Shown here: in pieces, positions 3,680 through 53,211 of the stretch | How positions within the stretch are numbered: the first letter of the stretch is position 1 | Layout of the letters: each line of letters begins with the position of its first letter | Origin: Flaccisagitta enflata | Taxonomy: Eukaryota | DNA length: 64,000 nt | Direction: 5' to 3' | NCBI GenBank assembly: GCA_965153355.1 | Contig: OZ231126.1 | Coordinates: forward strand, 38,440,001-38,504,000 | The notes under the pieces: generated by a model | Databases searched by the model: none | What the model was told of the DNA's origin: nothing | The model's input: only the letters and a program-made list of their open reading frames with translations | Translations under genes and position numbers: made by a program

Positions 3680-5029
3680 GGGGGAGTGTGAGTCTCTCTC
3701 TGTCTTTTTCTTTCTCTTTCCCTTTCTATTTTCTTTCTCTCTCACTCTCTCTCTTTCTCTCTCTCAAGCAGAATAAAATGCAAAAGCTAGCGTCATAAAA
3801 CTCAGGGTCAATTTGTGTAACATCCTGACTCTTCTGTACTGTTACATAGAGGCCAAAAAATAGGATCAATGAAAAATCTCGATTTTCGCAAAAATGCGAA
3901 AAAATAAAAAACGATTAAAAAATTCATAGCGCCAAAACTAATGATCGTAGAGACTTCTGGTTGGCGCCATTTGAAAGAGAAAAATTAGCTCTTTCTTAGC
4001 TGTGAATATCAAAAAATGTATACTCCCAGCCCCAAAACTGCCCAACTTGCTAAAATTGCCTCAAACCGAAAATGGAAAACTTTATTTCTCCCCTACATTT
4101 CAAAAAGTCGAATTACGTAATTCGACTTTTTTCCAATGATCTTTTCTTAGATATTGATAAAATTCTAATTTCTATGCTAATTATATTCTAATCTTTTGTA
4201 CTGTCTTTGGTCCTGTAATTGTGAACGTGAGAACTGTAAATGAAAGTACATTGTAAAGTGTGGCTAGTGATGCGGGAGTAAGTATATGTGAAATGGCAAG
4301 ATAAGTAAAAAAGCATTGCAATGTTAGTCACGGGTATGTTTGGCTTACTAAAACAATCATCTGTCCCTAGTACCTGCCTCCCAATTTGTCATTTTCTATA
4401 ATTGCTCAAGTTATACAACACGCTTTGAATTGCTACGGACCACGAAAGTACTTCATCTTTTAAACCTTTGTCTCTGGCCTCTTTTCGCTTGACGTCATCC
4501 ACTATATGTACACTAATATGCGTGTAAATTTCGATATATTTGCTGGTTTCTGAAGAGCGCGCATTCTGTAAGAAACCCCCTTGATGAAGGCTATAGAATA
4601 AGGAGGTGAACCTCTTCCTACGGTCCTTTTTTCAAAAGGATAACTCCTCCCTCACACCCACCATCCAACCGGGCTCACGGTAAAAAATGAATGAATTTTC
4701 CTTTTTCCCGATCCCGACCTCTACCTCAACCTTCCTTTTCGTTTTATTGATTTATCCAAACAATTGCATATCATTGGTCGCGTGCACGCAAGTCTATAAC
4801 TTCTTTTTATCTCTTCCTGTCGGTCGCTTCGTCTGTTGGTCCATTCAATTCATGAAGGTCGAATCATTTTAGGTCATTCTAATCATTTTTGAGATTGTTG
4901 AGGTCAGTAAAGCCACTCATGAGATCAATCAAGATAAATCAGAATTTTAGGATGCGATCATGCGTGCTTACGACTTTTAAGGTGGTCACCAGCCGCTTTG
5001 TCAGTCTATCGGAAATTCTGTATACTTTA

Positions 5030-6790
<1,761 letters not shown>

Positions 6791-11206: not shown

Positions 11207-11718
11207 GGTTGGTGCCTGGGCGTCACTTTATTTGTCAGTCAGACTCAATGTCTGTTTTCCTGTCAGTTTGTCTAACTTGTATCGATTACTTGGATGACAG
11301 AAGTAGGCACCAACCATTTTGAGATCATCTGTCCGTCTATCTCTTTGGTCGTCCGATCATCCGACCGTTCACCCACTCATTCAAAGTTACGATTTGCCGT
11401 GGGCATTGTCTTTGCCTATTTCTCCTTGTTTTCCTTTTCCTCTCAGTCTTACTCATTCTTTCTCATTAATTAAGCTGCGATTTTTTACGTTTTCTGTGGC
11501 ATTTGAAATCTTCGATGATCCGTTGTGATCCGGTCTTCCAAAGTTGTTGTTATCCGGCTCTTATAGTTGTGATCCGGTAATTATTTTCCACTACCAGATG
11601 TCGATCGCTGTGAGAATCTCCACATTCCCCACCATCTCCAGGTCAAGAAGCGCTCGATCGGACGCATTCGACTCCGCGGATCCGGAGAATAGGAGGGGCT
11701 CTCTCGCCATCGAAAATC

Positions 11719-11870
11719 CAAGATGGCGTCCGCTCGACTGCAGAGTGGAGGAAATCGAGGAAGAAGGAGAGAGATCTTCGATCGACGGAGGAAGGGGAGG
11801 AACGCGCGCGCGCGCCGGAAGCGCTGACTTCCGGTTGAGAATTGATGAACTATATCTTCTCAACCGCTTA
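11719..11870 (+). promoter_or_regulatory. Candidate LTR promoter elements (YY1-like CAAGATGGCG, paired ETS-like CCGGAAG/ACTTCCGG, inverted repeat CGGTTGAGAA..TTCTCAACCG)
   Basis: Motif matches in the CpG-rich half of the LTR; the same motifs are retained in the diverged solo LTR at 30910-31697. Confidence 0.4.
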
Positions 11871-12129
11871 GAGGAGGAAAGACTTCGACCCCTCTATCGA
11901 ATTCCCACGACGTGACGAGTCTGTTTATTATTGTTTCATTGCTGCCAAATAATTTCAAATCTCGTGATGTTTTGACTCATTTTGCTATTTCCAGGTTAAG
12001 TAAAAGTAGCTTCCTGACTTTCTTTCTGACATTCGATTACACGATCTCAGTTAAAGACTCGATTTTTGATGCTTTTTCCCCGACTTCCCTGCCCTGCGCC
12101 TAGATTGGAAACCGTTAGACAACATCCGT

Positions 12130-12229
12130 GTAAGTCCTTGACCTTTTATCATTTTGGCGCCATATAGAAGTATCCTTCATTGATGTACAGAGCTTGTCTT
12201 AACTTTTTCCTTTTTTCTCTGTCCGTCAG
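12130..12229 (+). other. Putative 100-nt intron inside the LTR
   Basis: GTAAGT donor at 12130-12135, and a polypyrimidine tract plus CAG ending at 12229. Both are conserved in the 3' LTR and the solo LTR. Confidence 0.55.
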
Positions 12230-12393
12230 GATTCCACGAATAGACTGATTTCGTGGACAACTTGACCGCTCATCTCAACAATTCGTCCTAAGCGGGTGTG
12301 CGTTCCAAATCTTTAGCGCAGCTACGCAGTGGAGTCAGTTCTCGCGATTACGCATCAGGAGCTTGCTAAGAAACTAGACGCTAAACGCTCTCA

Positions 12394-12405
12394 ATTCGTG
12401 GAATC
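12394..12405 (+). promoter_or_regulatory. Non-tRNA primer-binding site, complementary to LTR nt 12230-12241
   Basis: ATTCGTGGAATC immediately follows the LTR-terminal CA and is the exact reverse complement of GATTCCACGAAT at 12230-12241. Confidence 0.7.
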
Positions 12406-12437
12406 AAAAACCATCAACGATCCACGCAACGTCAACG

Positions 12438-15400
12438 ATGTCGACCGCCAACAACAACGCCAACGCCGACGCGATGTCAATGCCGCCACCTTCGCTGCCC
12501 AATCAACGCAGAAAAGCCTTTCGTCCAGCCGACTGTGTGTCTGTCGTTTCCGACTCATCTGTCTACGCGGGCGCAATGGACCCCGTGGCTACGACGCTTC
12601 ACGGATTACGATTGGCGCTACGCAACACGCGCAACGCCTACATGTCGGCGTTGAAACAAGCCGATACCCTCGACGACGACGATATATTGGACTTTTACCA
12701 AGATATGGACTGCCTTCGAAAGGAGGTGTGGTTAGCGGCGTGGCGACTTGTCAACCAGACAAAGACTTACTCACATGCAGAGTCGACCAACAATCCCGAC
12801 AAAGCGGCGTCACTGTTATCGACTGCCGAAAGCTCATTGACGGAAGTACGAAACTGTGGGACCAATCATGCTTCCACGATAAAAACACTTTTGCGTCGCA
12901 TCTATTCCTGCCGACCTACCACGACATCCACGACGATTCACCAGAGACTGGAGCAAAACGCGCTCTCGAGATGACGATGGGGTCGTCGACGCATTTCGTC
13001 CAGTCCCTTTCACGACGACGCAAATCGACGCCGAACACAACCGGCGACGATGGAGACGCGGGAGAGGACGACTTGCCCGTCGGTACGGAAGCGGCGAATC
13101 TCAATGCAGCGGAACAACGCCACAACGCGCCGCCCCATACGCCAGGCGCGATACAAGACGCCGAGGAGATACGTATAAACTTTGAACCTCCGACGCCGGC
13201 GACGCCGGCGAGGTCGCGCTTCCTGTCGGCTAGAGACGATGGAGACGATGACGCCGACGACGCGATGGAAACGTCATGGCCGAACAACGACGCCGACCTC
13301 CCTCCAGGCGCCGTTGGCGGCGCCCCTCCCACACAAGATCTTCTCAACATGCTACAGCAGTCGATCGTCGACGGCGACAAAAACGCTCAAGGCGACGCGA
13401 TGGTGAACGTCGTCCAACGTCTTGTCAACGACGTCAACCAAGTCCGACGCTCGGTGGCGAGAGAAGCACGCGCAAACACGCGATTCCGTCTCAGCTCGCG
13501 ATCTGTATCTCAACAACGCGAAGAAAATGCCCGGCAGTTGACGGCAAACATCGCATTAGACGCAGCCGTTACTGCCCGGACAGACGCGGTCACTGCCGGA
13601 ATTGACGAGAGGAAAAAAGGGGAGGAGGAGGAGAGGAGGAAGAAAGAGAAGGAGGAGGAGGAGGAGAGACAACGCATCCACGCTGAAGAAGTGAGAAGGA
13701 AGGCAGAGGAGAGAGAAAGGAGCAGGAGGAGAAAAGGAGGACGAACTTGAAAAACAAGATCGCCCAGGAGAAAAGAGAGAAAGAGGAGAGAGAAGAAAAG
13801 AAAAGGAAGGAAGCAGAGAGGAAAGCAGAGGAGGAGAGAAGGAAGGCGGTGGCAAAAAGAGACGCGGAAGAAAGAAAGAGGATGGAGGAGAAGAAAAGAC
13901 GCGAAGAGAAGAAAAAGGAGGAAGAGAAGAAAAAGAAAGAGGAGGAGGAGAGGAAGAGGAGAGAGGCGCAAAAGAAAAGCCAGCAGAGACAACCACCTTC
14001 CAAGACGCCACCCCCAGCCGCACGTGAACATCCTCTCCACGAGCAACTGCGCACGAGACAAGATGCAGCGGAGCAAGAAAAGTATGCGATGGATCACGCG
14101 GACGCAATGGCAAGGGTCCAACAATTGATCAGCGACCTCAACCTGGAGGACAGCGTCGTTTTGCAGACACGTGTTCCACCGCGCAAATCGACGCCGCCAT
14201 CACCAAGCTCACCCGTCATCGTCCGCCAGATCGCGGGTGATCTTCCAGCTCCGCAAGCGGCCCGAAATGCACGCGGGAGTCAGCGCCCTCTGGTCGACGA
14301 CGTCTTCGATGACGAGGGGTTCGAACGCGTCGACAGACGGAAGTCGAGGAAGTCGCCACCCCCAACGCCGTCGCCTCCTATGTATCAAAGACGTCAAACC
14401 GGAAGTGACTCCGCGCGAAATGGCCTCGCACATTCGCAGTCCTTCGCCGAGAGGATGAACGCCGCCTCTTTCATCGACAACCCGATCGCCTACGACGCCC
14501 GCGTCAGAGCAAAGGACGTGGGATTGAGAGAAATGCGCGCAGCACGCCCAAGAGAAGCGTATGGATACCTCGAGCCGATCGACTACATCATCGCCAAGTC
14601 TAAATTCGAAAATGCCGCCTCCAACATCGAGCTAGACGAAATCGACAAAGTGACTGAATTGGCCAACGTCTTCGCGAATCCAGCGAAGGAAATTATCGAC
14701 GGTCAACAACTGATCATCAAGGCGCACAATATGCGCCGTGTCTACAGCACCTTGTGGAGACGCCTGGACGAGATGTTCAACACGAGCGCCAACCCATTCC
14801 AATCGGCCGTCGACAGCATCTGCAGGAAAGGAAAGGTCCCAGAAAACGATATGAGAGCCCATCAATCATTGATTGGCACGTTGTACAAACTGGAAAACGT
14901 CGCAGAATTGCTGAATGTACCCGGAGAGTGTGATCGTGACGTCCACATTCGCCGCATCATCAACGCGAGGGTGCCACACATCTCGACGGACTATTGGAAA
15001 GCAAGCGCGCGTGAACAAGCTCGCCATGGCACGGCTTACGGCTTCCAAGAACTCATCGAGGAAGTGAAACATTGGGTATCGTACAACAACCTCAAAGAAC
15101 CAACACGCATGGCGCCGAAACCGACGAAGGTTGCAGCGACTGCAGTTGGTCCGGCGACGTTTAAGGAACAGCTCGTCAACTCACCTCCGAAACAGCAACC
15201 CAACGACATCTGCAATATTTGTGGAGGTCGTCACAATTCTCATTCGTGCAATGTTTTGGAAGCCATCCCATCAGCAGAGGATCGAGTGAAGAAGTTGGCG
15301 GAGAAACGTCTATGTTTTCATTGTTTCTGCCCAAACCATTCGGCGCGCGACTGCAAAGACAAGCCAACATGCTCATCTTGCAACAAGAGACACGCAACTT

Positions 15401-15579
15401 TGCTGCACGACCGCCAATGGAAGCCAAAAGGGAATGGAGAAGGAATCACGTTCAAGACGCCGAATGCCGCCGCATTAGCCGCAGCCGCTGCCGCCGCCAA
15501 AACCGTTCCTCCAGCACCCCCAAGCAGCTCGTCGACGGATGACTCTGCATCTGATGAAGGAAGGGTGATGGAGGCATGA
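12438..15579 (+). CDS. gag: BEL/Pao gag (about two frameshifts in this copy or assembly)
   Basis: Joined from ORFs 12438-12974, 12329-13750 and 13747-15579. Long E/K/R coiled coil; C-terminal knuckles CNICGGRHNSHSC, CFHCFCPNHSARDC and CSSCNKRHATLLH. Confidence 0.85.
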
Positions 15580-18500
15580 CTCGCTGCCACCTCCGCGATG
15601 AGGACGGTGGTCGCGGAGGATGATGTCACGCGACCGATTGTTCCTGTAAAGATCACCAACGCATCGACGGGCCGTTCCACCGTAGTGTTGGGGATGATCG
15701 ACAGCGGTGCGGATCGTGACGTTTTATCGTTTCAAATCGTTAAAAAATTAGACTTACCAACTGAAAAGATGCTGATGCGCGTGCATACGGTCAATTGTGA
15801 GGTGGTGGAGGAGAAAGTTTTGGCGTCCTTCATCCTTTCATCGATTGACGAGGAATACAACGTCCACATCAGCAACGCACTTACGGGAGAATTATTGACG
15901 GGTGAAGCGGATATTGCTCCATGCCAACGCGACTTCACAAATCAATCTCATCTTCGCGATATTCCATTTCCAAAAGCAAATGGTCCTGTCCAATTGATCA
16001 TCGGCGCCGCCCATTACGACGCGACGATGCCCGTGGAGGCAAGAAGAGGTCCATCAGGATCTTTGACAGCCTTCAGATGCGGTTTTGGATGGACTGTAGC
16101 AGGGAAGAGTGGACGAAGATCAGATGATACCGCTGTCATTAACGCAATCCACGTGGATAACGCCGCATTGAGCAAATCTCTCGACCGCATGTTCTATCAC
16201 GACTTCGCCATGTGTCGGAGGAAGAAATGGGCCAGTCTGAAGAGAATCGTCGCGCGGTGAAACGAGTGATGGAGACGATATACTTCGACGAGAAACTCCA
16301 AAAATACGTCGTGGGACTTCCATGGCGCTATGACAAGGAGAAGATCATCGAGATTATCAAATCCGTTAACGCACGCGCGATGACGATTAAGAGGACAAAA
16401 AGTCTCCGATACAAACTCTCAAATAATCATGACCTCCGCGATCGCGTCTTCAAAGAAATGGACAAATTTGAGGATACGGGCGTGGCGATTGAGATTGATC
16501 CGACGAATGACGACGCAAGCATCTCATCGCCACGCTGGTACTTGCCTATCCATGTAGTGGAGGAAAGAAATAAAACGCGGATTTGTCACGATGGACGCGC
16601 GGAGACTGGCGGCATTTGCCTCAATGAACTACTGATTGGAGGTCCGAATATCATGAACGTCTTGACTGAAGTTCTTATGAAATTTCGCCTTTATAAAATC
16701 GGTCTGATGACTGATATAAAGGCGTTCTTTCATAATGTCCGCGTCCATCCTGAGGACGCGGACACGTTCAGATATATGTGGTTCACTGACAAAAGCATGA
16801 GAGAGGCAGTCGTGATGCTCTTCTTGGCGCACATTTTTGGATCTGTGTCATCGAGTCTCGTCACCAGCTATGTTTTACGCCATCACGCAGAGAAGATCAA
16901 GCCCGACTTCCCGGAAAACGTCTACGAAATGTTGAGACATGCCTTCTACGTCGATGATGGCTCTGGTGGTGCGGATTCAGTCGACGAAGCACTGCAGCTG
17001 AAGCAGGATCTCATCGCCGCCATGAAAAGCGGCGGATTTACGTTAACTAAATGGAAATCGAACGCGGTGGAGGTGATGGACGACGATCCGAATGTCGCAG
17101 TCGACTTGAGCGCCAAACTCGAGGAGCCGACGAAGGTCTTGGGAGTCCAATGGTTGCCGTCGACGGACTGCTTCATCTTCAGATGCGATCCAGAAGCATG
17201 CAAGAGGGTGGCAACGACTCCTCTGAATTGGTCTCCATGCAAGCCGACAACTATGATCCCTTAGGCTTCACTGCCCCCCGCGCCCTTGAAGGGAGGAGGT
17301 GTCTTCAGTTGACGAGAGCTTCCGAGAAGGGATGGGATTCGACGATGGAGGAGGCGTTAATCAAACGCTTCGCCAAATGGTACTCTGCGACTCCATTGCT
17401 GATCCAGATTGAAATTCCGCGCCACATTGAATGGGGCATTGTGAAGGCCGTTCGACGTGAAGTTCACATCTTCTGCGACGCCGCCATCCCTGGTTTTGGG
17501 GTAGTGGGCTAGTGGTTGGTGGAAGATGAGGATGGAACAATCCGCGTTACCATTTTGTGCGCCAAGGCTCACGTCGTCCCTCTTGATGCGTCAAAAGCGT
17601 CGCACCATAATTCAGTGCCGAGGTTAGAAATGACAGCGGCAGAGAAAGCGGTGAAACTCAAACTTTTCATCAAGAGGACCATTCCAAAGGTGACTGAGGA
17701 CATGGTGACGCTCTGGTCAGATTCAGAGGCGGTGCTGAAGATGATTTTCGACCATAAGTCTAAACGCCCAAGCTTCTTCGCAAACCGACTTTCAAAAATC
17801 CACAGCGGCTCAAGTGATTCCCAATGGAGGTGGGTTGATTCGGAGAATAACTCGCGGACTATTGTTCGCGGGGTATTGATGCCGGCTGACTATGAAAAAT
17901 GGGACATCTTCCATTTCGGTCCGAAGTTTCTCTACCTTCCCAAATCTGAGTGGCCGGTGATGAACATCGCGACGGCGCCGGAAGCGTCAATCAACGCCGT
18001 CGCGACGGAAACGGTGGAGGAGAAGGAAGGAGAGAAGGAAAAGGAGATGTTCGCTTATGCAGTCGCCGCCCGTCGCCAGGAGTGGGTGGCGAAATTGCGT
18101 TTGATCGCCGTGGTTGTGAAGTGCACGCAGCGATGGAGACAGAAGGTGAAGGCAAAAACTAGAACAGCGACAACGACGCTGCCAAATCCATACTCTGTAT
18201 CTATGGCTGAATTGTACGACGCACAACGCCGCTTGATCAACGCGATCCAGTTCAAACATTTCCATGGAGAAATAACCAAGTTGAAGGCGGTGGGAAAAAC
18301 GACGCCGCTGATCAACGACGCCGGCGCCAAAGTGATCTGCAAAACCTTACGCCATCACAATCCGTTGTCGACGAGAAAGGAACGATGCGTGTCGGGAGCA
18401 GACTCGTGAATGCGGATATCGGCCATGATGAAAAATACCCGATGATTCTCCCGTCGAAAGATCCAAACGTCGCTTCTCTGATTCGCCATGTCCATCATCA

Positions 18501-19593
18501 GGATCTTCATGCAGGCCCAAAACACGTCTTGTGCCAACTGCGACGCTTTGTGTGGATTCTTCGTGGTCTCCAGGCGGTGAAGACAGTCATCCACCATTGT
18601 GTTACGTGCCAAAGGAACTTTAAAGATCCTATGAAGCAGCAGATGGCGCCTCTTCCTCAACGTCGGCTTATTCCAACGGCCCCCTTCGAGGAGGTGGGAC
18701 TCGACTGCATGGGTCACTTCCTGGTGAAACTAAATGGAAGAGCGGATCACAAAGTCTGGGCAGTGGTGTTTACATGCATGGTTTCAAGGGCGGTGCATGT
18801 GGAGGTGTTGTTTAAAATGGACACAGAGGCAATGATCAACGCCATCATTAGATTCGCGGCGAGACGGCAAACGGTGCGTCGCTTCATATCAGACTGTGGT
18901 ACCAACCTAGTTGGGGCGAATCGCGTCATGAAGGAGGAGATGCAGTCGTGGAACGCGTCGTCGACGGTGGCTCTGCAGCAGCATGGACTCCAATGGGACT
19001 TCATTCCTCCGGGGACTCCTCATTACGGCGGCGTATGGGAAAGGGTCGTATCCCTTTTCAAAAAACATTTGGCGTCCATTACTTCCGGTCACGTGCTCCA
19101 TTATGACGTCTTCCAAACGGCGGTGATTGAGGTGGAAGGAATTCTCAACCGTCGACCTCTCACGCCTTTGAGCGACGATCCTAGCGATACATCAGCGCTG
19201 AGGCCGGTCAACATCTTGCATCCGTCGACGTTCTCACACTCGTCGGCAGCGATTCTTCCTCCAGAGACCGGAAACGACGCCGTGGGAACGAGATGCCGAT
19301 GGAGAAACGCACAGGCCCGCGTTGACGCCTTCTGGAAGGTATGGCGCGCTGAATACCTTCAGTTGCTGCACGCAAGGAGCAAATGGACAAAGTCGGAAGT
19401 TAACATCAAAAAAGATGCATTGGTCATCATCGTTGACGAGACGCTTCATCGGCATCAGTGGTCTTTGGGACGCGTCGTCGAAGTGGAAGGATCTGGTGGT
19501 CATGTCCGGAAAGCACAGATCCGACGCCCCGACGGCAAGATTGTCCTCAAAGATCGGTCGAAGATCGTCCGATTGGAGTTGGATTCAGATTAA
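15580..19593 (+). pseudogene. pol: BEL/Pao pol (protease, RT, RNase H, integrase), disrupted by frameshifts and one stop
   Basis: Protease MIDSGAD; RT DIKAFF, IFGSVSS and FYVDD; YDPLG; RNase H HIFCDA, VPRLE and WSDS; integrase HHCC finger plus GLDCMG, ISDCGTN and WERV. Frame breaks near 16210, 17220, 17850 and 18365, and a TAG at 17510-17512. Confidence 0.92.
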
Positions 19594-20135
19594 AAACGGA
19601 TAAGTGTGAAGAGAGAGAGAGAAAGTAGACCAGAGAGAAGCACAAGTGTTTCTATTTGTAAAGACTATGCAGAAAATGAGGATTTTTTTCTCATGATTAT
19701 TTTTTGGTCTTGTTTACTTTTTCTCAGTCGGTCTGTCTGATATGTCTTTGTGTGTAATGACAGGAGAGAGAGAGGTACATGGTGCCCCAGTCAGTTGAGA
19801 GTGTCCGCATGATTGACTGACAATCTAAATTTTGCCATGCCATTTCAATCTTGTATTGACCATATAAAGGCATTTGTTCGTCATTTTCTTTTCCGTTTTA
19901 TCCATATCATTGACTGTTGAGTATGGAGGTCATTTGAGGCGCTGATCGAAGAGTTTTATTTCTTTGTCTGCGTATACCATTTAATCTTCCTCAATGTTAA
20001 TGGATATGTCTTCCTCTTTCCGTTATGTTACATATCGAAATCTGAATTTTCTCCAAAAACAGGCGTTTACACTATCTTACGCTAAAAGCTTCCCCTTGTC
20101 GGTATCGTCGCATAACTGTTGCAGAAAGATCCATC

Positions 20136-22481
20136 ATGTCGCAGCAGAATAACCAAGGCACGCCGGACGAGATCCGCGAAGCGAGGAGGCAGCGAATGGC
20201 GCAAGCCCAGGCCGATTTGGTGAGGAGTCATGAGGAGGAGACGAGGAGGATGGAGGAGGAGCGGGCGAGAGTGGAAGAGGAGAAGAAGAAAGTGGAAGAA
20301 GAGAAGAAAGACCCGGAGAAGAAGAGGAGGAGACAGGAGCAGGAGGCCAGGGCAGCGTCCCTCAGAGAACAACGCAGGCTTCGCGGGTTGCACCAGTCCG
20401 TCGCTGGAGGAGCTGATGACGTCATCGACGGGGTCAGCCATCTCTTCAACGACTCGTCTTCCGGCGCGTGGACCGTTACGGACCCTCTTCCTGCTCGGGC
20501 CCTCAACGCGTTCGATGCCAACGCCTTTGCCGACAAGCGCGCCGCCGGTGAAGCGCGTCGTCAAGCCGACGATGCGCTCCGGGCGGCAAGAAAGGCGAAA
20601 CGACAACAAGCTGCCAACGAAAGCTTCGATACGGCAGTCTTGGGAGTGGAGGCGCTCATGGGGGAGTCGACGTCGACCTCCACCACGGACGCCCCCCCGC
20701 CGCCACGCGGAGCAGAGGAAGTGGAGCGACAGGATGTAAATGACCCTGACAACTTGGACTTTGACGATGACGACGACGACGACGACGACGATGACGATTA
20801 CGAGACTCAGGATGACAGTGAGGGCGATAAGATGGACACTAACGAACATGACGGAAGGGGAGAGGGACTTCCTCCCGGGGAGGTTGCTCGACCCGACTCT
20901 ACAGGCCCCCAAGGGGTACTTACTGCTCCTTCCCTTGCTCCCCCAATTCTGCCGCCGCCGCCGCAGACGTCGCAGGCGGTCGTGGAGTCGCCGACGTTAC
21001 AAGTAACGCCGGCCGCAGACTCGACCGCGCCGGCGCCGTTTCAAGCATCACCTGACGCGACGCTGGTGATCCCGCCGTACATCAGTGATCTGTCCTCCAT
21101 CTCGCAGGAACAAGCTGTCGAATTGGTGAAGATCTACAACGCCCAAGTCGACGCCCTCATCGAGCGGAAGCACACTGCGATATACCACGACACGCAGCGT
21201 CGCCTACGCGCGGAGAGAGATGCTCTTCATCCACAAGCCGAGCGAAGAGCATATGTTCCGACACAAAGAGTTAGAGACGAATTAGTTGAAGAGGACGGTG
21301 AGATTGCGACGGTTGAAACACGCGAGACGCTCCAATTGTGCAAGATCATCAACATCAGATCTATTGGAGCAACGGCGGACATGGGAAATGGGACTTTGAG
21401 TGACATTTCCAATGGAAAAGCCTCAAATCAGAGGAAAAGACGACGTGAAGGAGCTGCTCGTCGGATCGCAGAGGCTATTCGTTCGACCGGAAGTGGCAGC
21501 GATCAGCGTCAAACGCCCGCGACGCAGGATCCTCCACAACATCATCCAAGAGACGATCGACGAGCCAATGCTGGCGCCAACAATCTGCAAATCGAAGTGA
21601 GAGAGAAGAGACGTCGGGTGAGCAGGGGTGGACCGCCGGATGCATCCGCATCGTTATCATCGACGGTGATGGATGGTCCCGCGAGATTACCACATGATCC
21701 CGCTCCCCGGCCTCCTCCTCCTCAACGCCAGCGGTCACGTGACATTTCACCAATCCGTGTCCCAACTCAAACGACGACGACAACGAACAATCAAGGGGGT
21801 GTGCTCGCAGGGGCAGCCGCAAATCTGCCCCCACCTCCTCCTCCTCCCGTCAACGACGACCAACAGCGACGAGAGGAGCAAAACGCCAACAAAAAGAAGA
21901 AGAATCGTCGTCCAAAAAGGAAGCCTAGAGATGCGTCGACGTCCAACAGGTCGTCAACGTCGACGGCATCCGCTTCTTCTCCTTCACATCGCCCTCCCCG
22001 ATCGCCGGAGGACCTTCTGACCGAGGCGATGTTGGCCGTCGCCATCAAGTTGCCAAATCATCCTCGGTCAAAGGATATTCAAAAGGTTGTAGACATTCTT
22101 CCGGCGGCCTTCTATCCCAACTCATCTCCGATGGATCGCGCGATCTACGCTGCCGATCACGCCGTGGATAGAGCCAGATCGGCGAGGAAGCTCATCGAAC
22201 AATACAACTTTAGGATGAAGGTTGTCGGTGAGCACGACGCAAAGGTCGCTCAGATGGCCCAGCTGCTGTCCGACGCGAAGAAGGAAGCCGACCGCGTCCG
22301 CGCTGAGTTTTCTCAGTCCGACGGACAAATGCCGTCGACTTCCGGCACTCAACGCCACTCCGCGCCGTCGAGCGACCACGCGCCACCTTCCGGCAGAAAC
22401 CCCCCTCCACGCCACAGTAGGAAAGACGACGCGCCATCCTATCGTGGAGGAAAGGGCGGCAGGGGTAAAGGCCGGAAGTAG
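20136..22481 (+). CDS. Retrotransposon accessory ORF3, 781 aa, function unknown (not env-like)
   Basis: Intact ATG-to-TAG ORF between integrase and the 3' LTR with the same codon style as gag. It has coiled coils, a poly-Asp tract, Pro-rich regions, basic NLS-like runs and an RGG-like tail. Acceptor-like TTTTCTCCAAAAACAG ends at 20062. Confidence 0.85.
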   Translation: MSQQNNQGTPDEIREARRQRMAQAQADLVRSHEEETRRMEEERARVEEEKKKVEEEKKDPEKKRRRQEQEARAASLREQRRLRGLHQSVAGGADDVIDGVSHLFNDSSSGAWTVTDPLPARALNAFDANAFADKRAAGEARRQADDALRAARKAKRQQAANESFDTAVLGVEALMGESTSTSTTDAPPPPRGAEEVERQDVNDPDNLDFDDDDDDDDDDDDYETQDDSEGDKMDTNEHDGRGEGLPPGEVARPDSTGPQGVLTAPSLAPPILPPPPQTSQAVVESPTLQVTPAADSTAPAPFQASPDATLVIPPYISDLSSISQEQAVELVKIYNAQVDALIERKHTAIYHDTQRRLRAERDALHPQAERRAYVPTQRVRDELVEEDGEIATVETRETLQLCKIINIRSIGATADMGNGTLSDISNGKASNQRKRRREGAARRIAEAIRSTGSGSDQRQTPATQDPPQHHPRDDRRANAGANNLQIEVREKRRRVSRGGPPDASASLSSTVMDGPARLPHDPAPRPPPPQRQRSRDISPIRVPTQTTTTTNNQGGVLAGAAANLPPPPPPPVNDDQQRREEQNANKKKKNRRPKRKPRDASTSNRSSTSTASASSPSHRPPRSPEDLLTEAMLAVAIKLPNHPRSKDIQKVVDILPAAFYPNSSPMDRAIYAADHAVDRARSARKLIEQYNFRMKVVGEHDAKVAQMAQLLSDAKKEADRVRAEFSQSDGQMPSTSGTQRHSAPSSDHAPPSGRNPPPRHSRKDDAPSYRGGKGGRGKGRK

Positions 22482-23307
22482 AGGGTCTCGTCGCCATGAT
22501 CCCGGCCATCGTCTTCCCACTTCAATCGCGCGTATCATACCGACGTTTACGTCGTCGCGGAAGACTAGCGGTTGATCATCCAATGGCGACTCGAGATGCT
22601 TCCGGTGACGGACAGGCCGGCCGCCCTCGCTTCTCTAGAGGGCGGTCGGGGGAGGGGGTCCCACCGGGACCCCCCTGCGACTCTCCCCGTAAGTGTCGAG
22701 GGGTAGGGGGGTCTTGAATTGCTCATGAACCAATTGTACCAAATTAGAATATTAAGCGTATGATTTGTGGAATGAGAATCAGTTCTAACTCTCCTGATCC
22801 GTTTCTCCATACCCATTCCGGGTGTGGGGGAACCCCCCCCCCGCTTACATTTAAGAGACGTGCGTGCTGGAGTGATGGACAATCCTAACTGGGCGTCGGT
22901 ACGTAGTATAGTATAGTTTATACACTAGTATAGACCACTTAGCATATAGGCTAATTATTTATTTCAGTCCATCATTCCCGGGGATCTAGTATCGTTACCT
23001 TTTTTTCTTGTTTAGCATGAAGACTGGAGGCAGAATGGAGCGAGAGGAGCGATTCATGACCAGACCGTAGCGATAGCCCGGACGATCGACGGTGGTAGGT
23101 GTTTCTGCTCCTAGAACCCATTTTCTGAATCGTCTTATCCGCGCGAGATCCACGATATTTATAATGGTGTCTTTGTAATATTTAAAAATTTTTGTTTTTG
23201 AGATGAGCCCCGGATGTTGTCATAGCTTGTAAATTTTTAGAATGAACGGTATTCCCTGACAAGAAACTAGTTAGATACGAGATTTGAAATTTTTTATCAA
23301 ATATTTT

Positions 23308-23317: not shown

Positions 23318-24103
23318 TGTGAGAATCTCCACATTCCCCACCATCTCCAGGTCAAGAAGCGCTCGATCGGACGCATTCGACTCCGCGGATCCGGAGAATA
23401 GGAGGGGCTCTCTCGCCATCGAAAATCCAAGATGGCGTCCGCTCGACTGCAGAGTGGAGGAAATCGAGGAAGAAGGAGAGAGATCTTCGATCGACGGAGG
23501 AAGGGGAGGAACGCGCGCGCGCGCCGGAAGCGCTGACTTCCGGTTGAGAATTGATGAACTATATCTTCTCAACCGCTTAGAGGAGGAAAGACTTCGACCC
23601 CTCTATCGAATTCCCACGACGTGACGAGTCTGTTTATTATTGTTTCATTGCTGCCAAATAATTTCAAATCTCGTGATGTTTTGACTCATTTTTGCTATTT
23701 CCAGGTTAAGTAAAAGTAGCTTCCCTGACTTTCTTTCTGACATTCGATTACACGATCTCAGTTAAAGACTCGATTTTTGATGCTTTTTCCCCGACTTCCC
23801 TGCCCTGCGCCTAGATTGGAAACCGTTCGACAACATCCGTGTAAGTCCTTGACCTTTTATCATTTTGGCGCCATATAGAAGTATCCTTCATTGATGTACA
23901 GAGCTTGTCTTAACCTTTTTCCTTTTTCTCTGTCCGTCAGGATTCCACGAATAGACTGATTTCGCGGACAACTTGACCGCTCATCTCAACAATTCGTTCT
24001 AAGCGGGTGTGCGATCCAAATCTTTAGCGCAGCTACGCAGTGGAGTCAGTTTCGCGATAACGCATCAGGAGCTTGCTAAGAAACTAGACGCTAAACGATC
24101 TCA
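23318..24103 (+). repeat. 3' LTR (786 bp)
   Basis: TGTGAGAATC...CGATCTCA, followed by the TSD ATCGC. Confidence 0.95.
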
Positions 24104-24511
24104 ATCGCGTAAATACATTCCGATCAAGATTTTTTGCTTCCGTCATTCGGTAACAAAAAACGGTTTTCCTCCATAGGGCCGTCGATAGGTCCGTCCGTTT
24201 GTCAAGCGTTCAGTTCCATAATTCCAAGTTGATATGCTTACTTCTATACTTTACCTTTCTTAGAAGTTTAAGCGTAACTGCCGCTTGTAGGCGTGGAACA
24301 AGGCCGGATACGCGGCTACCCCAGTCGCGTGCTGGTGAGCAGGGCAAATATTCAGGGTCACTACTCACTAGAGCATTTTGGCAGGAGCAGTAAGGCCTAA
24401 GACCCCCAAAACATAAAAAGTAAAAAGAGGACCGACCGACCAACCAACCGACGGACGGACGGACGGATAAAGCGGGTTGCAGGGCCTGCACGCGGAAAAT
24501 ACAATTACTTT

Positions 24512-30604: not shown

Positions 30605-33600
30605 TAGTCCAGGCTTTTTAAAAAAAGCATCGGCGATTCTGCAGCAAAGTCTGAAAATTTGCATACAGGGTCAGTTTTTGATGCTGAACAAGACTAGGAT
30701 CGGTCCACGTCAAAATTTTTTATGGACCTACCTAAAAAATGCATTTTTTCTCAAAAAAAAATTTCAAAATTGCGCCAACGCCAAACCGTTTGACGGATCA
30801 TCATAAAAATTTAGTTGAAGCAAAATATAGGTTTTTTTTACTTCCATTTCAAATTTTATCAAAATTGGTTCACTAGAAGCGGAGATATAGCTGTTTAAAG
30901 TCTGGGCATTGAAAGCGTTTACGGTCTGATTTCCTATCAAGCTCCTGATGCGTAATTGCGAGAACTGACTCCACTGCCGAGCTGCGCTATTGAGTTGGAA
31001 CGTACACCCGCTTATAACGAATTGTTGAGATGAGCGGTCAAGTTGTCCGCGAAATCAGTCTATTCGTGGAATCCTGATGGACAGAGGAAAAGAAAAAGGT
31101 TAAGAACACACTGTACATCAATGATGGATACTACTGTAAATGCGCCAAAAAGAGTAAAAAGGTCAAGGACTTACATGGATGTTGTCGAACGGTTTCCAAT
31201 CTAGGCGCAGGACAGGGAAGTCGAGGGAAAAACATCAAAATCGAGTCTCTAATTGATATTGTGAAGTCAAATGTCAGTAAGAGAGTCGGGGAAGCCACTT
31301 TACTTAACCTATAAATAAATAACACAATAAATCAAAGCATCACGAGATTTGAAATTATTTGGCAGCAATGGAACAACAATAAACGTAAGCGTCGCGTCGT
31401 GGGAATTCGCCAGAGGGGTCGAAGTTGATTCTCCTCTAAGCGGTTGAGGAGATAAGTCCATCAATCCTCAACCGGAAGTCAGCGCTTCCGGGCGCGCGCG
31501 CGTGCCTCCTCTTCCTCCGTCGAGCGAAGATTCTCTCTCCTTTTCCTCGATTTCCTCCACTCGACTGCCGAATGGACGCCATCTTGGATCTTCGACGGCG
31601 AGATATCCTCTCCACTCCTTCGGGATCCGCGGAGTCGATTGCGTTTGATCGAAGGCTTCTTGACCTGAATATGGTGGGGAATGTGCAGAATGTCACAGGT
31701 ATGTTTTTCAAAAAAATGCTATATTTGATTTTTGGCAAAAAAAATTGAAAAAATCATCTTAAGACCCCCAAACTTTTTTTGGATATTACTTTGACCATTT
31801 GACACCTACTGAAAAAAAACGAATAAAAAAAATATTCAGTTTTGCTCCCATTATGGCTAAAAAAACAAAAAATTGGATATCAAAATCTACACCAAATTTT
31901 CAAAAAAAGCTATTTTTGTATAAATAGCCTAATTTTTGATGCCAGCTCCAGGAATCAGTCCTCTATAGGCATATTTACTTGACTGCAAAGTTTTAGAATG
32001 GTCCAAAACCAAAAAAACACAAAAAAACTGTTCAAAGTCTAAAAATTTGGGGCCCAAAATTTTGCATTTTTGGATACCTTTGGACATTTGGCATTGCTAC
32101 GGCCAAACCCTTAGAGCCAGTTGCACCAAATTTTGCATCCAAGTCGCCAATCACCTGGAGCATCTTCGTGCAAAATTTCAGGCCATATAGCCAAGTTTAA
32201 GTAACATTTTTGGGCTAAAAATACCCAAAAAACGCCCAAAAAATGCGAAAAAATGTTTTTTTAGCCATATAGGCTAAACTATGTGTCCCACTATCATGAA
32301 ATTTTGCATTGATGGACTTGACCTCAACATGTACCTGCATGAAAAATTTCATTGGCCTATGATAAGCGGTTTTCTCAAAATTCAATTTTGAATTTTTTCA
32401 AAATTTTGCATTTTCATTTTTGAAATACATTTTTAATTTTTTCAACAAAGATAGAGTGTATCATGATGCACACTATGAGAATTTATTCTTCATAAGCATA
32501 TTCACTTGAGTGCAAAATTTCACAATAGTCCTATAACTCAAAAAACCTAAAATCACTGCTCAAAATCATGATATTAGGGGTACAAAATTTTGCATTTTTG
32601 GACATCTTAGGACATTTTGGCTTGCTACAGTCTAACACCTTGGACTAGTGGCCCCAAATTTTGCATACAGTTTGTCAAGCACCAGGGCCATCTTCATGCA
32701 AAATTTCAGCCTAAAAATCAAATGATTGCAAAAAAATGTTTTTTTAGCCATGCTACAGCCAAACGCCTTGGACTGGTAGCCCCAAATTTTGCATACAGCT
32801 TGTCTAGCACCAGGGCCATCCTCATGCAAAATTTCCGCCTAAAAATCAAATGGTAAATAAGTTTTTTGGCTTAAAAATCCCCAAAAAATGCCCAAAAAAT
32901 GCAAAAAAATGTTTTTTTATTATGCTACAGCCAAACGCCTAAGACTAGTGGCCCCAAATTTGGCATATAGCTTGTCAAGCGCCAGGGCCATTTTCATGCA
33001 AAATTTCAGCCTAAAAATCAAACGATAAGTAGGTTTTTTGGCTTATAAGACCCAAAAAATGCCCAAAAAATGCAAAAAAATGTTTCTTTAGCCATGCTAC
33101 AGCCAAACGCCTTGGACTAGTGGCCCCAAATTTTGCTTACAGCTTTTGAAGCACCAGAGGCATCTTCATGCAAAATTTCAGCCTAGAAATCAAATGACAA
33201 GTAGGTTTTTTGGCTTAAAAATCCCCCAAAAATGCCAAAAAATTGTTTTTTTAGCCATGCTACCGCCAAATGCCTTGGACTAGTGGCCCCAAATTTTGCA
33301 TACAGCTTGTCAAGCACAAGGGCCATCTTCATGCAAAATTTCAGCCTAAAAATCAAATGATAAGTAGGTTTTTTGGCTTAAAAATCCCCCAAAAATGCAA
33401 AAAAATTGCAAAAAAATGTTTTTTTAGCCATGCTACAGCCAAACGCCTTGGACTAGTGGCCCCAAGTTTTGCATATAGCTTGTTAAGCACCAGGGCCATC
33501 CTCATGCCAAATTTCAGCCTGAAAATCAGATGATAAGTATGTTTCAATGCTTAAAAATGCCAAAAAAATGCCAAAAAAAAGCAAAAAAATGTTGTTTTAG

Positions 33601-38460: not shown

Positions 38461-38852
38461 GCTCATGAATATCAAACTGGCGGTTGAAGTATCAGAGGCG
38501 ACTAAAGGCCTCTATCATGGACAAAAATATCAAAGTATCGGTCCAAGTAACAAAGCCAATTACAGGTTTATTTCACAACGACAAATGCTGCAAAGGCGCC
38601 CAAGGCTGTCCAAGTAACAAAGGCAACGATAAAAAAAACAGAGCCCAGGACAACTCAAGTACAATATTTATCAATACGATACAATACATTGGTTGCTGCA
38701 TCTGCAGAAGAGGTACTCTAAATTCAGGGAGAACTAGGTATTCCTGAAAACAAATATGATTTCCTCATGTCATGGAAAGTTACCATGTAGCCTTGTTATG
38801 TTCCACGATAGTGGAACACTAAAGTTCCACAGTTTTCTCTGTGAGTAGATAC

Positions 38853-41380
38853 GTCTGTCACACACTCTAGAAATCTCCAATGTTTGTCACTGAACCCAGA
38901 ATTCTCCAATGTCCGTCACACAACCCAGAGTTCTCCAAATGTCTGTCTCACCACCCAGTTTTCTCCAAATGTCCGTCACACCACCCAGATTTCTCCAGAT
39001 GTCTATCTCACCACTCAGTTTTCTCCAATGTCTGTCACATTAGCCAAATTTCTCCTATGTCTGTCACACAACCCAAAATTCTCCAATGTCTGTCACACAA
39101 CCCAAGATTCTCCAATGTCTGTCACAAAACCTGAGATTCTCCAATGTCTGTCACACAACCAAAGATTCTCCATGTCTCCGATATCTGTCACACAACCCAA
39201 GATTCTCCAATGTCTGTCACACAACCTAAAATTCTCCCATGTCTGTCACACAGCCTAAGATTCTCCGATGTCTGTCACACAACCCAAAATTCTCCATTGT
39301 CTGTCATACAACCCCAGATTCTCCGATGTCTGTCACACAACCCAAGATTTTCCGATGTCTGTCTCACAACCCAAAATTCTCCTGTGTCTGTCACACAGCC
39401 CAAGATTCTCCGATGTCTGTCACATAACCCAAAATTCTCTTATGTCTTTCACACAACCCAAAATTTTTGGATGTCTGTCACACAGCCCAAGATTCTCCGA
39501 TGTCTGTCACACAACCCAAAACTCTCCGACGTCTGTCACACAGCCCAAGATTCTCCGATGTCTGTCACACAACCCAAGATTCTTTAATGTCTGTCACACA
39601 ACCCAAAATTCTCCAATGTCTGTCACACAGCTCAAGGTTCTCCGATGTCTGTCACATAACCCAAAATTCTCCGATGTCTGTCACACAACCCAAAATCCTC
39701 TGATGTCTGTCACACAGCCCAAGATTCTCCAATGTCTGTCACGCAACCCAAAATTTTTTTATGTCTGTCATACAGCCTAAGATTCTCTGATGTCTGTCAC
39801 ACAACCCAAAATTCTCGGATGTCAGTCACACAACCCAAAACTCTCCGATGTCTGTCACACAACCCAAAATTCTCAAATGTCTGTCACACAACCCAAGATT
39901 CTCTGATGTCTGTCACATAACCCAAAATTCTCTTACGTCTTTCACACAACCCAAAATTTTTGGATGTCTGTCACACAGCCCAAGATTCTCCGATGTCTGT
40001 CACACAACCCAAAATTCTCCGACGTCTTTCACACAGCCCAAGATTCTCCGATGTCTGTCACACAACCCAAGGTTCTCCGATGTCTGTCACACAACCCAAA
40101 ATTCTCCGATGTCTGTCACACAACCCAAAATTCTCTGATGTCTGTCACACAGCCCAAGATTCTCCAATGTCTGTCACACAACCCAAAATTTTTCGATGTC
40201 TGTCGTACAGCCTAAGATTCTCTGATGTCTGTCACACAACCCAAAATTCTCGGATGTCAGTCACACAACCCAAAACTCTCTGATGTCTGTCACACAACCC
40301 AAAATTCTCCAATGTCTGTCACACAACCCAAGATTCTCTGATGTCTGTCACACAACCCAAGATTCTCCAATGTCTGTCACACAACCCAAAATTCTCCGAT
40401 GTCTGTCACACAGCCCAAGATTCTCCGATGTCTGTCACACAACCCAAAATTTTCCAATGTCTGTCACAACCAAAAATTCTCTAATGTCTGTCACACAGCC
40501 CAAGATTCTCCAATGTCTGTCACACAAACCAAAATTCTCCGATGTCTGTCACACAACCCAAAATTCTTCAATGTCTGTCACAAACCCAAGATTCTCCCAT
40601 ATCTGTCACACAACCCAAGATTCTCCCATGTCTGTCAAACAACCCAAAATTCTCCAATGTCTGTCACACAGCCCAAGATTCTCCAATGTCTGTCACTCAA
40701 CGCAAAATTCTCCAATGTTTGTCACACAACCCAAACTTCTTCAATGTCTGTCACACAGCCCAAGATTCTCCAATGTCTGTCACACAACCCAAAATTCTGC
40801 GTTGTCTGTCACACTACCCCAGATTCTCGAATGTCTGTCACACAACCCAAGATTCTCCGATGTCTGTTACACAACCCAAAATTCTCCAATGTCTGTCACA
40901 CAACCCAAGATTCCCCAATGTTTGTCTCACAACCCAAGATTCTCCAATGTCTGTCACACATCCAAAAATTCTTCGATGTCTGTCACACAACCCAAGATTC
41001 TCGGATGTCTTTCACATGACCGAAAATTATCCAATGTCTGTCATACAACCCAAAATTCTCCAATGTCTGTCACACAGCCTACGATTCTCCGATGTCTGTT
41101 ACACAACCCAAGATTCTCTGATGTCTCTCGCACAACTCAAGTCTCTGATGTCTGTCACACAACCCAAAATTCTCCAATGTCTGTCACACAACCCCAGATT
41201 CTCCGATGTCTGTCACACAACCTAAGATTTTCCAATGTCTGTTACACAACCCAATATTCTCCAATGTCTGTCACACAACCCAAAATTCTCCAAATTTATG
41301 TCACACAACCCAGTTTTCTCCAATGTTTGTCACACAGCCTAGAATTCTCCAATGTATGTCACACCACCCAGTTTCACCCA
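38853..41380 (+). repeat. 29-bp minisatellite, about 85 units
   Basis: Consensus ATGTCTGTCACACAACCCAARATTCTCCR; the 29-aa period of the translations equals three units. Confidence 0.95.
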
Positions 41381-41572: not shown

Positions 41573-41981
41573 ATTATTTACAACACAGATTTGTCTGGAT
41601 ACAAATACTAGAAAATTTTTATGAATTATTGCCTTTTTTTTTCATGCCCAATCAAGTTTTCGTGGAACACATTATGGCGAACGCCACTTGTTCCTTCTCG
41701 GATGGCATTGGACTGCCTCGAATCGGGACACTCGGAATTCCCGGAGCGCGCAGAGGACGGCTACGAAGGCGAGAGAGGCCTGCGAGAGGGCGGCCCCCGT
41801 GGAGCGCGGGGCGGCCTCGAGGGCGCGGGTTCTGTCCGAATCCAACGGAGCCAAGATACCGTAACGAAATGGACGATGGTCAATTTACTTCCTTTTTCGG
41901 CTAATCGCGGCCGACGATCTGGAAAAAGGAGTACATTTAAGGGGAACCGAGATCACAGAAACAGATATGCTAATGACTCAA

Positions 41982-42074
<93 letters not shown>

Positions 42075-42837
42075 CAAGCATTACAGACAGAGACAGACAA
42101 AGACAGGCAGAGACAGAGACAGACAGAGACAAACAGGGACTGACAGAGACAGGCCAAGACAGAGACAAACTGAGATAGACTGAGACAGACAGAGACAGAC
42201 AGATAGATAGAGACAGAGCATGGAATGCTCTCCGTCGTTTATGTATGAAAGATTGTAAATATGCGTTTATGGAAAAGGGTTTTGCAACTGAAACGACAGA
42301 GGGCGCATTCTTGTGCCTCTTGCGTTCGGATTAGCAGGCCGAATGAATCGCGATTTTAGTATGGCCACGCTTCGCTTTGGGCCTGTACTCAACCACTTTG
42401 CCGTTGATTTGAATGAATGCCCAAAAAGATTTTCAGGGAACGACATCCTCCATAACAGTCGAATTGGTATCTGTTGAAAAACATGGACTTTCAATGGCAA
42501 TGATTTGAATTGGATTACATTATCCATCTCGTTGTAATCCTGACGGTAAGAACTATGATCAGCAACGGACGCATTGGGTTTTTTTTTTACTTTTTTTTTC
42601 TATCTCTTTCAGAAACAAAAAGTACTTTTTTTTTTTTTTTTTTTTTTGCGCGCGCGATGACGATTGTATCTCGGAGAAATCAGGCGGAAGACCCAGACGT
42701 GGGGAAAAGCAGACACTAAAGAGAAAAAGACTCAAAAGACTCAAAAGACATGCGGAGATGATCTTGTCTCTCATTTTCCACTTGTTTGACGGTCAAACAC
42801 ACTCCAGACCGATGGTGACACTGATAAGGATATCATT

Positions 42838-42924
<87 letters not shown>

Positions 42925-43075
42925 AGGTAGACAGATCGAGAGACAGACTAAAAGATAAAGACCTTTCAATTTTTCTGCATCGAGACAGACAGAGAAGCAT
43001 CTCAAATAACCCTACCGCTGGTCTGGGTCGTCGTGAAGATGATGCGTATTGATTTCTACAACTTTGTTTCTGGTA

Positions 43076-52654: not shown

Positions 52655-53211
52655 ACCGAGAGAGGACAAATAATTTTCTTCCCCCTTACTTCGGCCATAC
52701 CAACTAAATCTGGTTTCACCGCCACCGGCTCTCTCTCTCTCTCATTCTCCATTTCTCTTTTCTTTCTCTCTCTCTCTCGCTTTTCTCTGTTCTTTCTCTC
52801 TCCGGCAATCAAGAAAGAGAAAACACGGAAAAATTACGCTGAGTCTTTTTCCTCTCTGGCCTCTCCTCTGTCATTCCGTCTTTTTTGCGAGCAACGGGAA
52901 GCAAAAAGAGAGATAAAAAAAAACTTTTTTCTTCCAATGAACACGAATAAAAATTCGCCCCTCCTCATTGACTAAGAGATAACAACGAGAAAGATGGAAT
53001 CATCATCATCAACTTCAAAGAGAAAAATCTAAAAATAGACAACAAAAAAGATTCTGTTGAGAAAAAAGAAAGACATAAGAAGAGAAATTCAACACCCGAA
53101 TTGCGAAACTTTCGGTATCGGGAACCAAACACAAAGAAAACAATTCTCTTCTTTTTTTCTGAGGAGAGAACTTAAACAAGAAAAAAAAAAACTTTGGTCC
53201 TAATACCAAAA

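Follow-up and report, generated by a model that had tools for sequence, protein, structure and literature searches.

The primer of Tf1 is the very 5' end of its RNA. The major splice donor of HTLV-1 and BLV lies within the LTR (R region), and outron spliced-leader acceptors occur in nematodes, tunicates, flatworms, and others. Self-primed reverse transcription, as outlined in PMC6317226, is documented for the Tf1/sushi chromoviruses and predicted for the Tcn1 chromoviruses, the TAR copia elements, and a few plant lineages. In foamy viruses, the major splice donor of the LTR suppresses polyadenylation in a U1-dependent manner, as outlined in PMC3694450. For the BARE retrotransposon, distinct RNA pools for translation and for replication are described in the relevant part of PMC3735527. 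Our search of the literature on Pao self-priming and Pao primer binding sites, which covered parts of PMC13524379 and PMC3601003 among others, yielded no description of self-priming in BEL/Pao elements. The search on LTR introns, in the portions of papers that it covered, yielded no paper on an intron inside a retrotransposon LTR.

The window (the whole 64,000-nucleotide stretch of DNA that was analyzed) contains a 12.5-kb LTR retrotransposon with two LTRs and a 5-bp target duplication, ATCGC, at 11604-11608 and 24104-24108, bordering the TG...CA ends of the LTRs. The 98.5% identity between the 5' and 3' LTRs corresponds to 6 substitutions and 5 single-base indels. The Pfam domains along 16161-19593 follow the order RVT_1, Peptidase_A17 (Pao), Integrase_H2C2, rve, and DUF5641. 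Since the internal ORFs carry these domains, the element was assigned to BEL/Pao (Semotivirus), and both the order of the Pol domains and the paired TG...CA LTRs with a short target duplication agree with that family. The features used below are as follows.

11609-12393, + strand: 5' LTR (TGTGAG...CTCTCA), 785 bp, 98.5% identical to 23318-24103.
11980-12003 (AG at 11993-11994), + strand: second acceptor-like site, 13/17 pyrimidines, overlapping a weak donor-like CAG/GTTAAGT.
12087-12103, + strand: further acceptor-like site CTTCCCTGCCCTGCGCCTAG, 14/17 pyrimidines, 26 nt before the donor.
12130-12135, + strand: donor-like GTAAGT with CGT on the exon side, unchanged in the 3' LTR (23841) and in the solo LTR.
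12130-12229, + strand: intron-like interval of 100 nt, GC content 0.38 versus 0.46 and 0.49 in the flanks.
12199-12203, + strand: branch-point-like TTAAC whose A, at 12202, precedes the AG by 27 nt; the solo LTR retains CTTAAC.
12204-12229, + strand: acceptor-like pyrimidine tract plus CAG; TCAGG doubles as an initiator-like motif.
12230-12241, + strand: putative self-primer GATTCCACGAAT, directly after the CAG ending at 12229.
12394-12405, + strand: primer-binding site (PBS) ATTCGTGGAATC, from the first base after the terminal CA of the LTR onward.
12438-13750, + strand: gag ORF, counted from its ATG; the leader 12230-12437 is free of ATG.
20046-20062, + strand: weak acceptor-like site AAAAACAG/G, before ORF3, 9/17 pyrimidines.
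20136-22481, + strand: ORF3 (ATG at 20136), a charged, proline-rich, low-complexity protein.
23318-24103, + strand: 3' LTR with an identical module (GTAAGT at 23841, CAG ending at 23940, 12-mer at 23941-23952).
30910-31697, - strand: solo LTR belonging to this family (85% identity), with the module at 31074-31174 (101 nt) and the 12-mer at 31062-31073.

The pol region of the window copy (13687-19593) was broken into at least six frames, with frame shifts near 16161-16260, 17051-17264, and 18211-18409 and an in-frame stop at 17510-17512. This copy looks defective despite the LTR identity of 98.5%. Another in-frame stop, at 15577-15579, was matched by a stop at 4965-4967 in a related element, L001 (see below); it may serve for read-through from gag-protease into pol and have been conserved as such. 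The ORF3 protein matched no Pfam family and, by eye, was not envelope-like. Outside the element, an uninterrupted open frame (53176-55938) encodes a TGF-beta propeptide and ligand domain. When the TGF-beta ligand domain only was considered, the closest named relatives of its product were ADMP/BMP2/BMP7-like proteins of spiralians (nemertean, brachiopod, mollusc, and annelid). As to the host, this gene points to a bilaterian and no further. Large tandem arrays at 38850-41000, 5400-6550, and 41900-43000 comprise about 66 or more units of a 29-nt satellite, together with several arrays of 8- to 12-nt repeats.

As in the Tf1/sushi elements, to the extent that PMC6317226 outlines them, the PBS right after the 5' LTR is complementary to a stretch of 11 to 12 nt located about 160 nt upstream in the same LTR, and the two arms are predicted to pair. 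In the window element, 12230-12241 is the exact reverse complement of 12394-12405 (12/12 nt). Apart from the PBS and the three LTR copies, the window contains no further match to the 12-mer; these 4 matches compare with 0.52 expected, and none of 100 shuffles reached 4. No TGG-type tRNA site was seen at the LTR edge itself; the first TGG lies 5 nt past the LTR and is followed by AATCAAAAACC. A tRNA scan of the window found no genes. Unlike the Tf1/sushi elements, the window element belongs to BEL/Pao (Peptidase_A17, DUF5641) and is not a Ty3/gypsy chromovirus; it may work like Tf1 without being a member of the Tf1/sushi clade. It also differs from Tf1 in what lies ahead of its primer, namely, a full 3' splice-site signal and, 100 nt upstream, a donor. 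A model in which an RNA 3' end serves as the primer did not fit, as there is no poly(A) signal 10 to 30 nt upstream of 12241.

Thermodynamic folding predicted primer:PBS pairing with a probability of 0.96 to 0.98 for an RNA starting at 12228 or 12230 (0.98 at 12230). With the interval 12130-12229 removed and a first exon of 24 to 30 nt, the predicted probability was 0.94 to 0.96, and it dropped to about 0 for starts at least 48 nt upstream, whether spliced or unspliced; L001 gave similar results. The z-scores of these predicted folds were unremarkable. An RNA competent for priming is predicted to carry the primer within about 30 nt of its 5' end. We also noticed that TCCACGAA and TTCGTGGA (12232-12255) can form a local 8-bp hairpin, a competitor of the PBS for the primer. 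The hairpin is perfect in the 5' LTR only; the 3' and solo LTRs carry a C at the position of T12254.

The preliminary description had placed GTAAGT at 12130-12135, the end of the pyrimidine tract and its CAG at 12229, the 12-mer at 12230-12241, and TTTTGCTATTTCCAG with its AG at 11993-11994, and all of these positions proved right. The branch-point consensus is yUnAy, and the module holds the complete set of spliceosomal GT-AG signals, namely, a donor, a branch site, a pyrimidine tract, and a YAG. With a generic donor matrix, whose weights are approximate, the donor at 12130 ranked in the top 1.3% of 2991 GT sites. Its score of 3.1 is modest, with at least 15 sites in the window scoring higher, and its weak point is the poor exon side (CGT/GT). 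GTAAGT by itself was not unusual in number: the + strand of the 64 kb has 7 and the - strand 11. Within the window element, GTRAGT was found on the sense strand only three times, at 12130, at 22689, and in the 3' LTR copy. The acceptor-like site at 12229 has 15/17 pyrimidines, a level reached by 23 of the 2826 YAG sites on both strands of the window (0.8%).

The distance from donor to acceptor was 100, 100, and 101 nt in the 5', 3', and solo LTRs, respectively. When the 5' LTR was compared with the solo LTR, identity was 93% upstream of the donor (12085-12129), 77% across the interval, and 94% over 12230-12300. The interval contained 5 gap columns in this comparison, with a net length change of just +1. 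The solo LTR retained GTAAGT, CTTAAC, CAG, and the 12-mer unchanged, and its tract was changed in sequence yet pyrimidine-rich. The 40 nt ahead of 12230 were the least conserved part of the LTR relative to the solo LTR (65 to 70%), and only the pyrimidine content was kept. The tract had 22, 22, 21, and 20 pyrimidines out of 25 in the 5' LTR, the 3' LTR, the solo LTR, and L001, respectively, despite low sequence identity. As far as sequence comparison goes, the pattern between the window element and the solo LTR, with the flanks and the signals kept and the interior varying, is that of an intron. Sequences in the interval that resemble Sm and YY1 sites were set aside for want of support.

To find relatives, metagenome contigs were scanned with an integrase alignment, which gave 80 BEL/Pao loci. 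The closest of these that includes a 5' region is L001, whose pol is colinear with that of the window element (48% amino acid identity for integrase and 45% for RT). BLAST detected no nucleotide similarity between the L001 5' region and the window LTR, and a global alignment of the two LTRs gave noise outside the acceptor/primer and PBS areas. Upstream of gag, L001 reads ...AACTCCAAACG/GTGAGT (1651), then a 101-nt AT-rich interval, and then TTTCCTTCCTTGTTCTGCCTCAG/GATTAAATC, the acceptor junction being CAG/GATT. Its 9-mer GGATTAAAT (1751-1759) is the reverse complement of ATTTAATCC (1889-1897), which lies right behind ...CTTTTACA (TTTTACA). Comparison of the pair GGATTAAAT/ATTTAATCC with the 12-mer pair of the window indicates, therefore, that primer and PBS differ between the elements yet stay complementary. 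GTRAGT was present on the sense strand of L001 only at 453, 1651, and 7102.

From its termini and layout, we infer that the L001 LTR, available as a single copy, extends from TGTGAAAATG (1227; termini TGTGAAAA...TTTTACA) to 1888. These limits were chosen because the window LTR start TGTGAGAATC resembles TGTGAAAATG, because the L001 termini form an imperfect inverted repeat, and because the end of an ORF3-like frame at the contig start, about 965 nt upstream, mirrors the 837-nt spacer in the window. Both elements also carry a short direct repeat, with one copy just ahead of the donor and the other downstream of the primer: GACAAC in the window (12116-12121 and 12256-12261) and ACAACTC in L001 (about 1640 and 1808). 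When the 101-nt interval was removed from L001 1631-1957, an ATG 20 nt before the donor opened an 80-codon frame through the primer and PBS. This frame has no counterpart in the window and is probably due to chance.

A strict module was then defined as GTRAGT followed after 95 to 105 nt by a YAG with at least 15/17 pyrimidines. In 1,127,900 nt (the 80 loci plus the window, both strands), it occurred 4 times, in the 5', 3', and solo LTRs of the window and in L001, with no background case. Among 1066 acceptor-like sites tested, 11 had at least 9 nt, within 2 nt of the AG, that were complementary to a sequence 80 to 320 nt downstream, and 2 of these 11 were the focal sites. These statistics favor homology of function between the module of the window element and that of L001. 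A resemblance to splice signals by coincidence would fit the abundance of loosely defined donor/acceptor pairs, of which there were 46 on the + strands of 564 kb, and the lack of GTAAGT enrichment in the window. However, the strict module was confined to four LTRs, and it abuts a co-varying primer in two elements whose LTRs share no nucleotide similarity, so coincidence appears extremely unlikely. The donor/acceptor pair adjoining the primer is probably a selected feature with a function. The proposal that this pair is not a chance arrangement was thus borne out: its spacing is 100 to 101 nt in the three window LTRs and L001, and primer and PBS have co-varied. The same applies to the suggestion to look for the splice motifs across the family, as they were kept both in the solo LTR and in L001, at 48% integrase identity.

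More distant BEL/Pao loci showed other arrangements. L055 (36 to 37% integrase identity) has an 11-nt inverted match between 753-763 and 915-925, with the starts of the arms 162 nt apart. Its downstream arm spans the 4th to 14th bases after the verified LTR end, about 159 nt separate the start of its upstream arm from the LTR end, and the gag ATG lies just downstream. L055 is possibly an independent self-primer without a splice-like context. The self-primers of L022 and L007 are less certain than that of L055, and none of these three possible self-primers has an acceptor-like context. By eye, L065 and L041 have TGG-type tRNA sites. Since the distant loci have tRNA sites or acceptor-free primers, the module belongs to the sub-lineage of the window element and L001 and not to BEL/Pao at large.

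Broader searches for inverted pairs were less informative. Among 12 loci with LTR pairs, an inverted match of at least 9 nt was found in 2, L036 (9 nt, probably by chance) and L055 (11 nt). L058 contains CAG/GATT, and it was rejected, having neither a complement nor a donor. An agnostic search of the 80 loci for inverted pairs of at least 11 nt returned 63 pairs in 500 kb, which is about the chance level and unusable alone. In a gag-anchored search, the best inverted match was at least 10 nt in 2 of 39 loci, compared with 17 of 760 random anchors, showing no general enrichment. This search missed the window's own pair because the anchor fell upstream of the PBS, and it is therefore insensitive. 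An exact 22-mer of the primer region had no match in the metagenome contigs, and the integrase alignment run against viral contigs gave 50 pattern matches and no relatives.

We therefore consider as the main reading that GTAAGT...CAG is a functional leader intron whose donor is the main 5' splice site of the element, with a probability of roughly 0.4. The signals were observed directly, as were their conservation and the way in which primer and PBS co-vary; splicing at these sites, the place of the transcription start, and priming are what we infer. Transcription would start a few tens of bases upstream of 12130, and GTAAGT would be the major 5' splice site. Its joining to the proximal acceptor at 12229 would fuse a short first exon straight onto the primer, and the spliced leader, with the primer near its 5' end, would fold onto the PBS as in Tf1. 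The same donor, joined to the acceptor just upstream of ORF3, would give a subgenomic ORF3 mRNA. With an internally cut self-primer, minus-strand strong-stop DNA would end inside R, whatever sits 5' of the primer. Because strong-stop DNA would be independent of that sequence, an element with a spliced leader could still replicate. Some considerations speak against an intron. The second strand transfer should suffer if the primer kept a 5' exon, and an intron inside R would vanish from the progeny if the 3' copy were spliced in the packaged RNA.

The pairing predicted for RNAs starting at 12228 or 12230 (0.96 to 0.98) would also be expected if TCAGG were a transcription start as in Tf1, the border between 12229 and 12230 being that of U3 and R, the RNA starting at A12228 to G12230, and the primer lying at its 5' end. 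The pyrimidine tract would then reflect core-promoter composition, and GTRAGT 100 nt upstream would act in DNA or not at all. TCAGGATT behind a pyrimidine tract is common to the window element and L001, the leader 12230-12437 contains no ATG, and such a start is the cleanest and simplest design for second strand transfer. Poly(A)-signal-like hexamers, AATAGA in the window and ATTAAA in L001, overlap the primer, as would suit a short R beginning there. In addition, 11 copies of TCGA fall in 11609-12229 and none in 12230-12393, a distribution expected of an enhancer-like U3. The TCAG of the window (TCAGGA) fits 4/6 positions of the LTR initiator consensus TCAKTY, as given in the pertinent part of PMC3601003. 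Concerning the putative U3 itself, the 11 copies of TCGA compare with about 2.4 expected from the overall rate in the window, and the putative U3 of L001 has about five TTATGCAA(C/T) repeats in place of TCGA; both look like lineage-specific arrays of factor-binding sites.

Several observations do not agree with such a start. It leaves no role for a GTRAGT fixed at 100 to 101 nt in four LTRs with no background case in 1.13 Mb. Intron pyrimidine tracts keep their composition while the sequence drifts, which is not usual for core promoters; the 40 nt ahead of the proposed start, least conserved at 65 to 70% with composition alone kept, are unlike a core promoter. TATA at -30 is absent, and GGACA at +28, presumably DPE-like, is present in the window and not in L001. 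ORF3 would need another donor or an internal promoter. On balance, a transcription start at the primer, the main rival of the leader intron, is somewhat unlikely. For a start upstream of the donor, as an intron in the leader would call for, the 60 nt of the window that precede 12130 contain no TATA-like motif.

The position of the donor resembles that in foamy viruses, where, as outlined in PMC3694450, a single consensus 5' splice site lies in an LTR-derived leader upstream of the PBS; as there, the window donor could serve a subgenomic mRNA for a third ORF. The foamy virus LTR (same source, in outline) is also a precedent for donor-like sites that only bind U1 snRNP and suppress premature cleavage and polyadenylation in the LTR, without splicing to 12229. 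In line with this function, the two donor-like sites of the window are preceded by AATAAT (11949) and AGTAAA (12001). Nevertheless, U1 binding alone would explain neither the conservation of the acceptor, nor the constant spacing, nor the complementarity across the junction, and we consider it quite unlikely. Unlike in foamy viruses, the proximal acceptor of the window element lies 100 nt downstream, inside the LTR, and would complete an LTR-internal putative intron ending at the primer.

The pyrimidine tract plus CAG at 12229 is like an outron acceptor in that it would define a new 5' end of the mature RNA. A host leader could be trans-spliced at 12229 and at the site before ORF3, operon-style, since both elements have acceptor-like sites exactly where separate 5' ends would be needed, and with a short leader the primer would stay close to the 5' end, as favored by the fold predictions. 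Unlike an outron acceptor, however, the window site has a conserved donor 100 nt upstream, which would be superfluous for trans-splicing, and Rfam gave no family and no leader RNA gene in the window. Such trans-splicing is very unlikely. The preliminary description had considered spliced-leader addition at an acceptor without a donor; at 12229, it is not favored because the conserved GTRAGT sits 100 nt upstream. For the site at 11994, it was correct that no donor, at least none scoring 1.5 or more, lies upstream inside the LTR and that the site is kept in the solo LTR, as TTATTTATAG/GTTAAGT. Its use as an acceptor or trans-splice site gained no support: conservation of the site is limited to the copies in the window, and its sequence could just as well be a weak donor (CAG/GTTAAGT, donor score 0.38). 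It has no positional counterpart in L001.

The joining of the 12130 donor to the acceptor at 20062, which had been suggested to give an ORF3 mRNA, is plausible. The ATG of ORF3 at 20136 is the first one past 20062, with none in 20063-20136. L001 has an acceptor-like site at 9294 with 17/17 pyrimidines, 90 nt ahead of the ORF3 ATG and with no ATG in between; this site and the scarcity of GTRAGT on both sense strands support the suggestion. The acceptor at 20062 itself is weak (9/17 pyrimidines).

If the interval is removed, the complement of the PBS becomes longer in both elements. In the window, pairing of U12129 with A12406 would extend the helix from 12 to 13 bp. In L001, ACG/GAUUAAAU would pair with AUUUAAUCCGU and extend it from 9 to 11 bp, with A1648-C1649-G1650 opposite C1897-G1898-U1899. 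This extension across the putative junction was noticed post hoc, with a chance of about 1 in 50 to 1 in 250, and is only suggestive. It would be expected if the primer were built by splicing, so that the PBS complement runs across the junction of the two exons (13 bp for the window element and 11 bp for L001, versus 12 and 9 unspliced), a proposal that we regard as unlikely. If it held, only intron-free RNA would carry the full self-primer near its 5' end, and splicing would license reverse transcription in a BEL/Pao lineage that has given up tRNA priming.

A precedent for one LTR yielding RNAs that differ in their start or processing, with replication limited to some of them, is provided by BARE, as described in the relevant part of PMC3735527. 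Unlike the window element, BARE is a plant copia element primed by tRNA. If transcription started at the primer, the window element would bring a U3/R border of the Tf1 type to a new superfamily, which even so would extend what is known to a modest degree. If an intron in the leader is real, an LTR intron ending at the primer would link splicing, that is, the making of mRNA, with the choice of the replication template, two processes that are usually separate in retroelements. It would also show how an element tolerates a spliced 5' leader, strong-stop DNA being independent of the upstream sequence.
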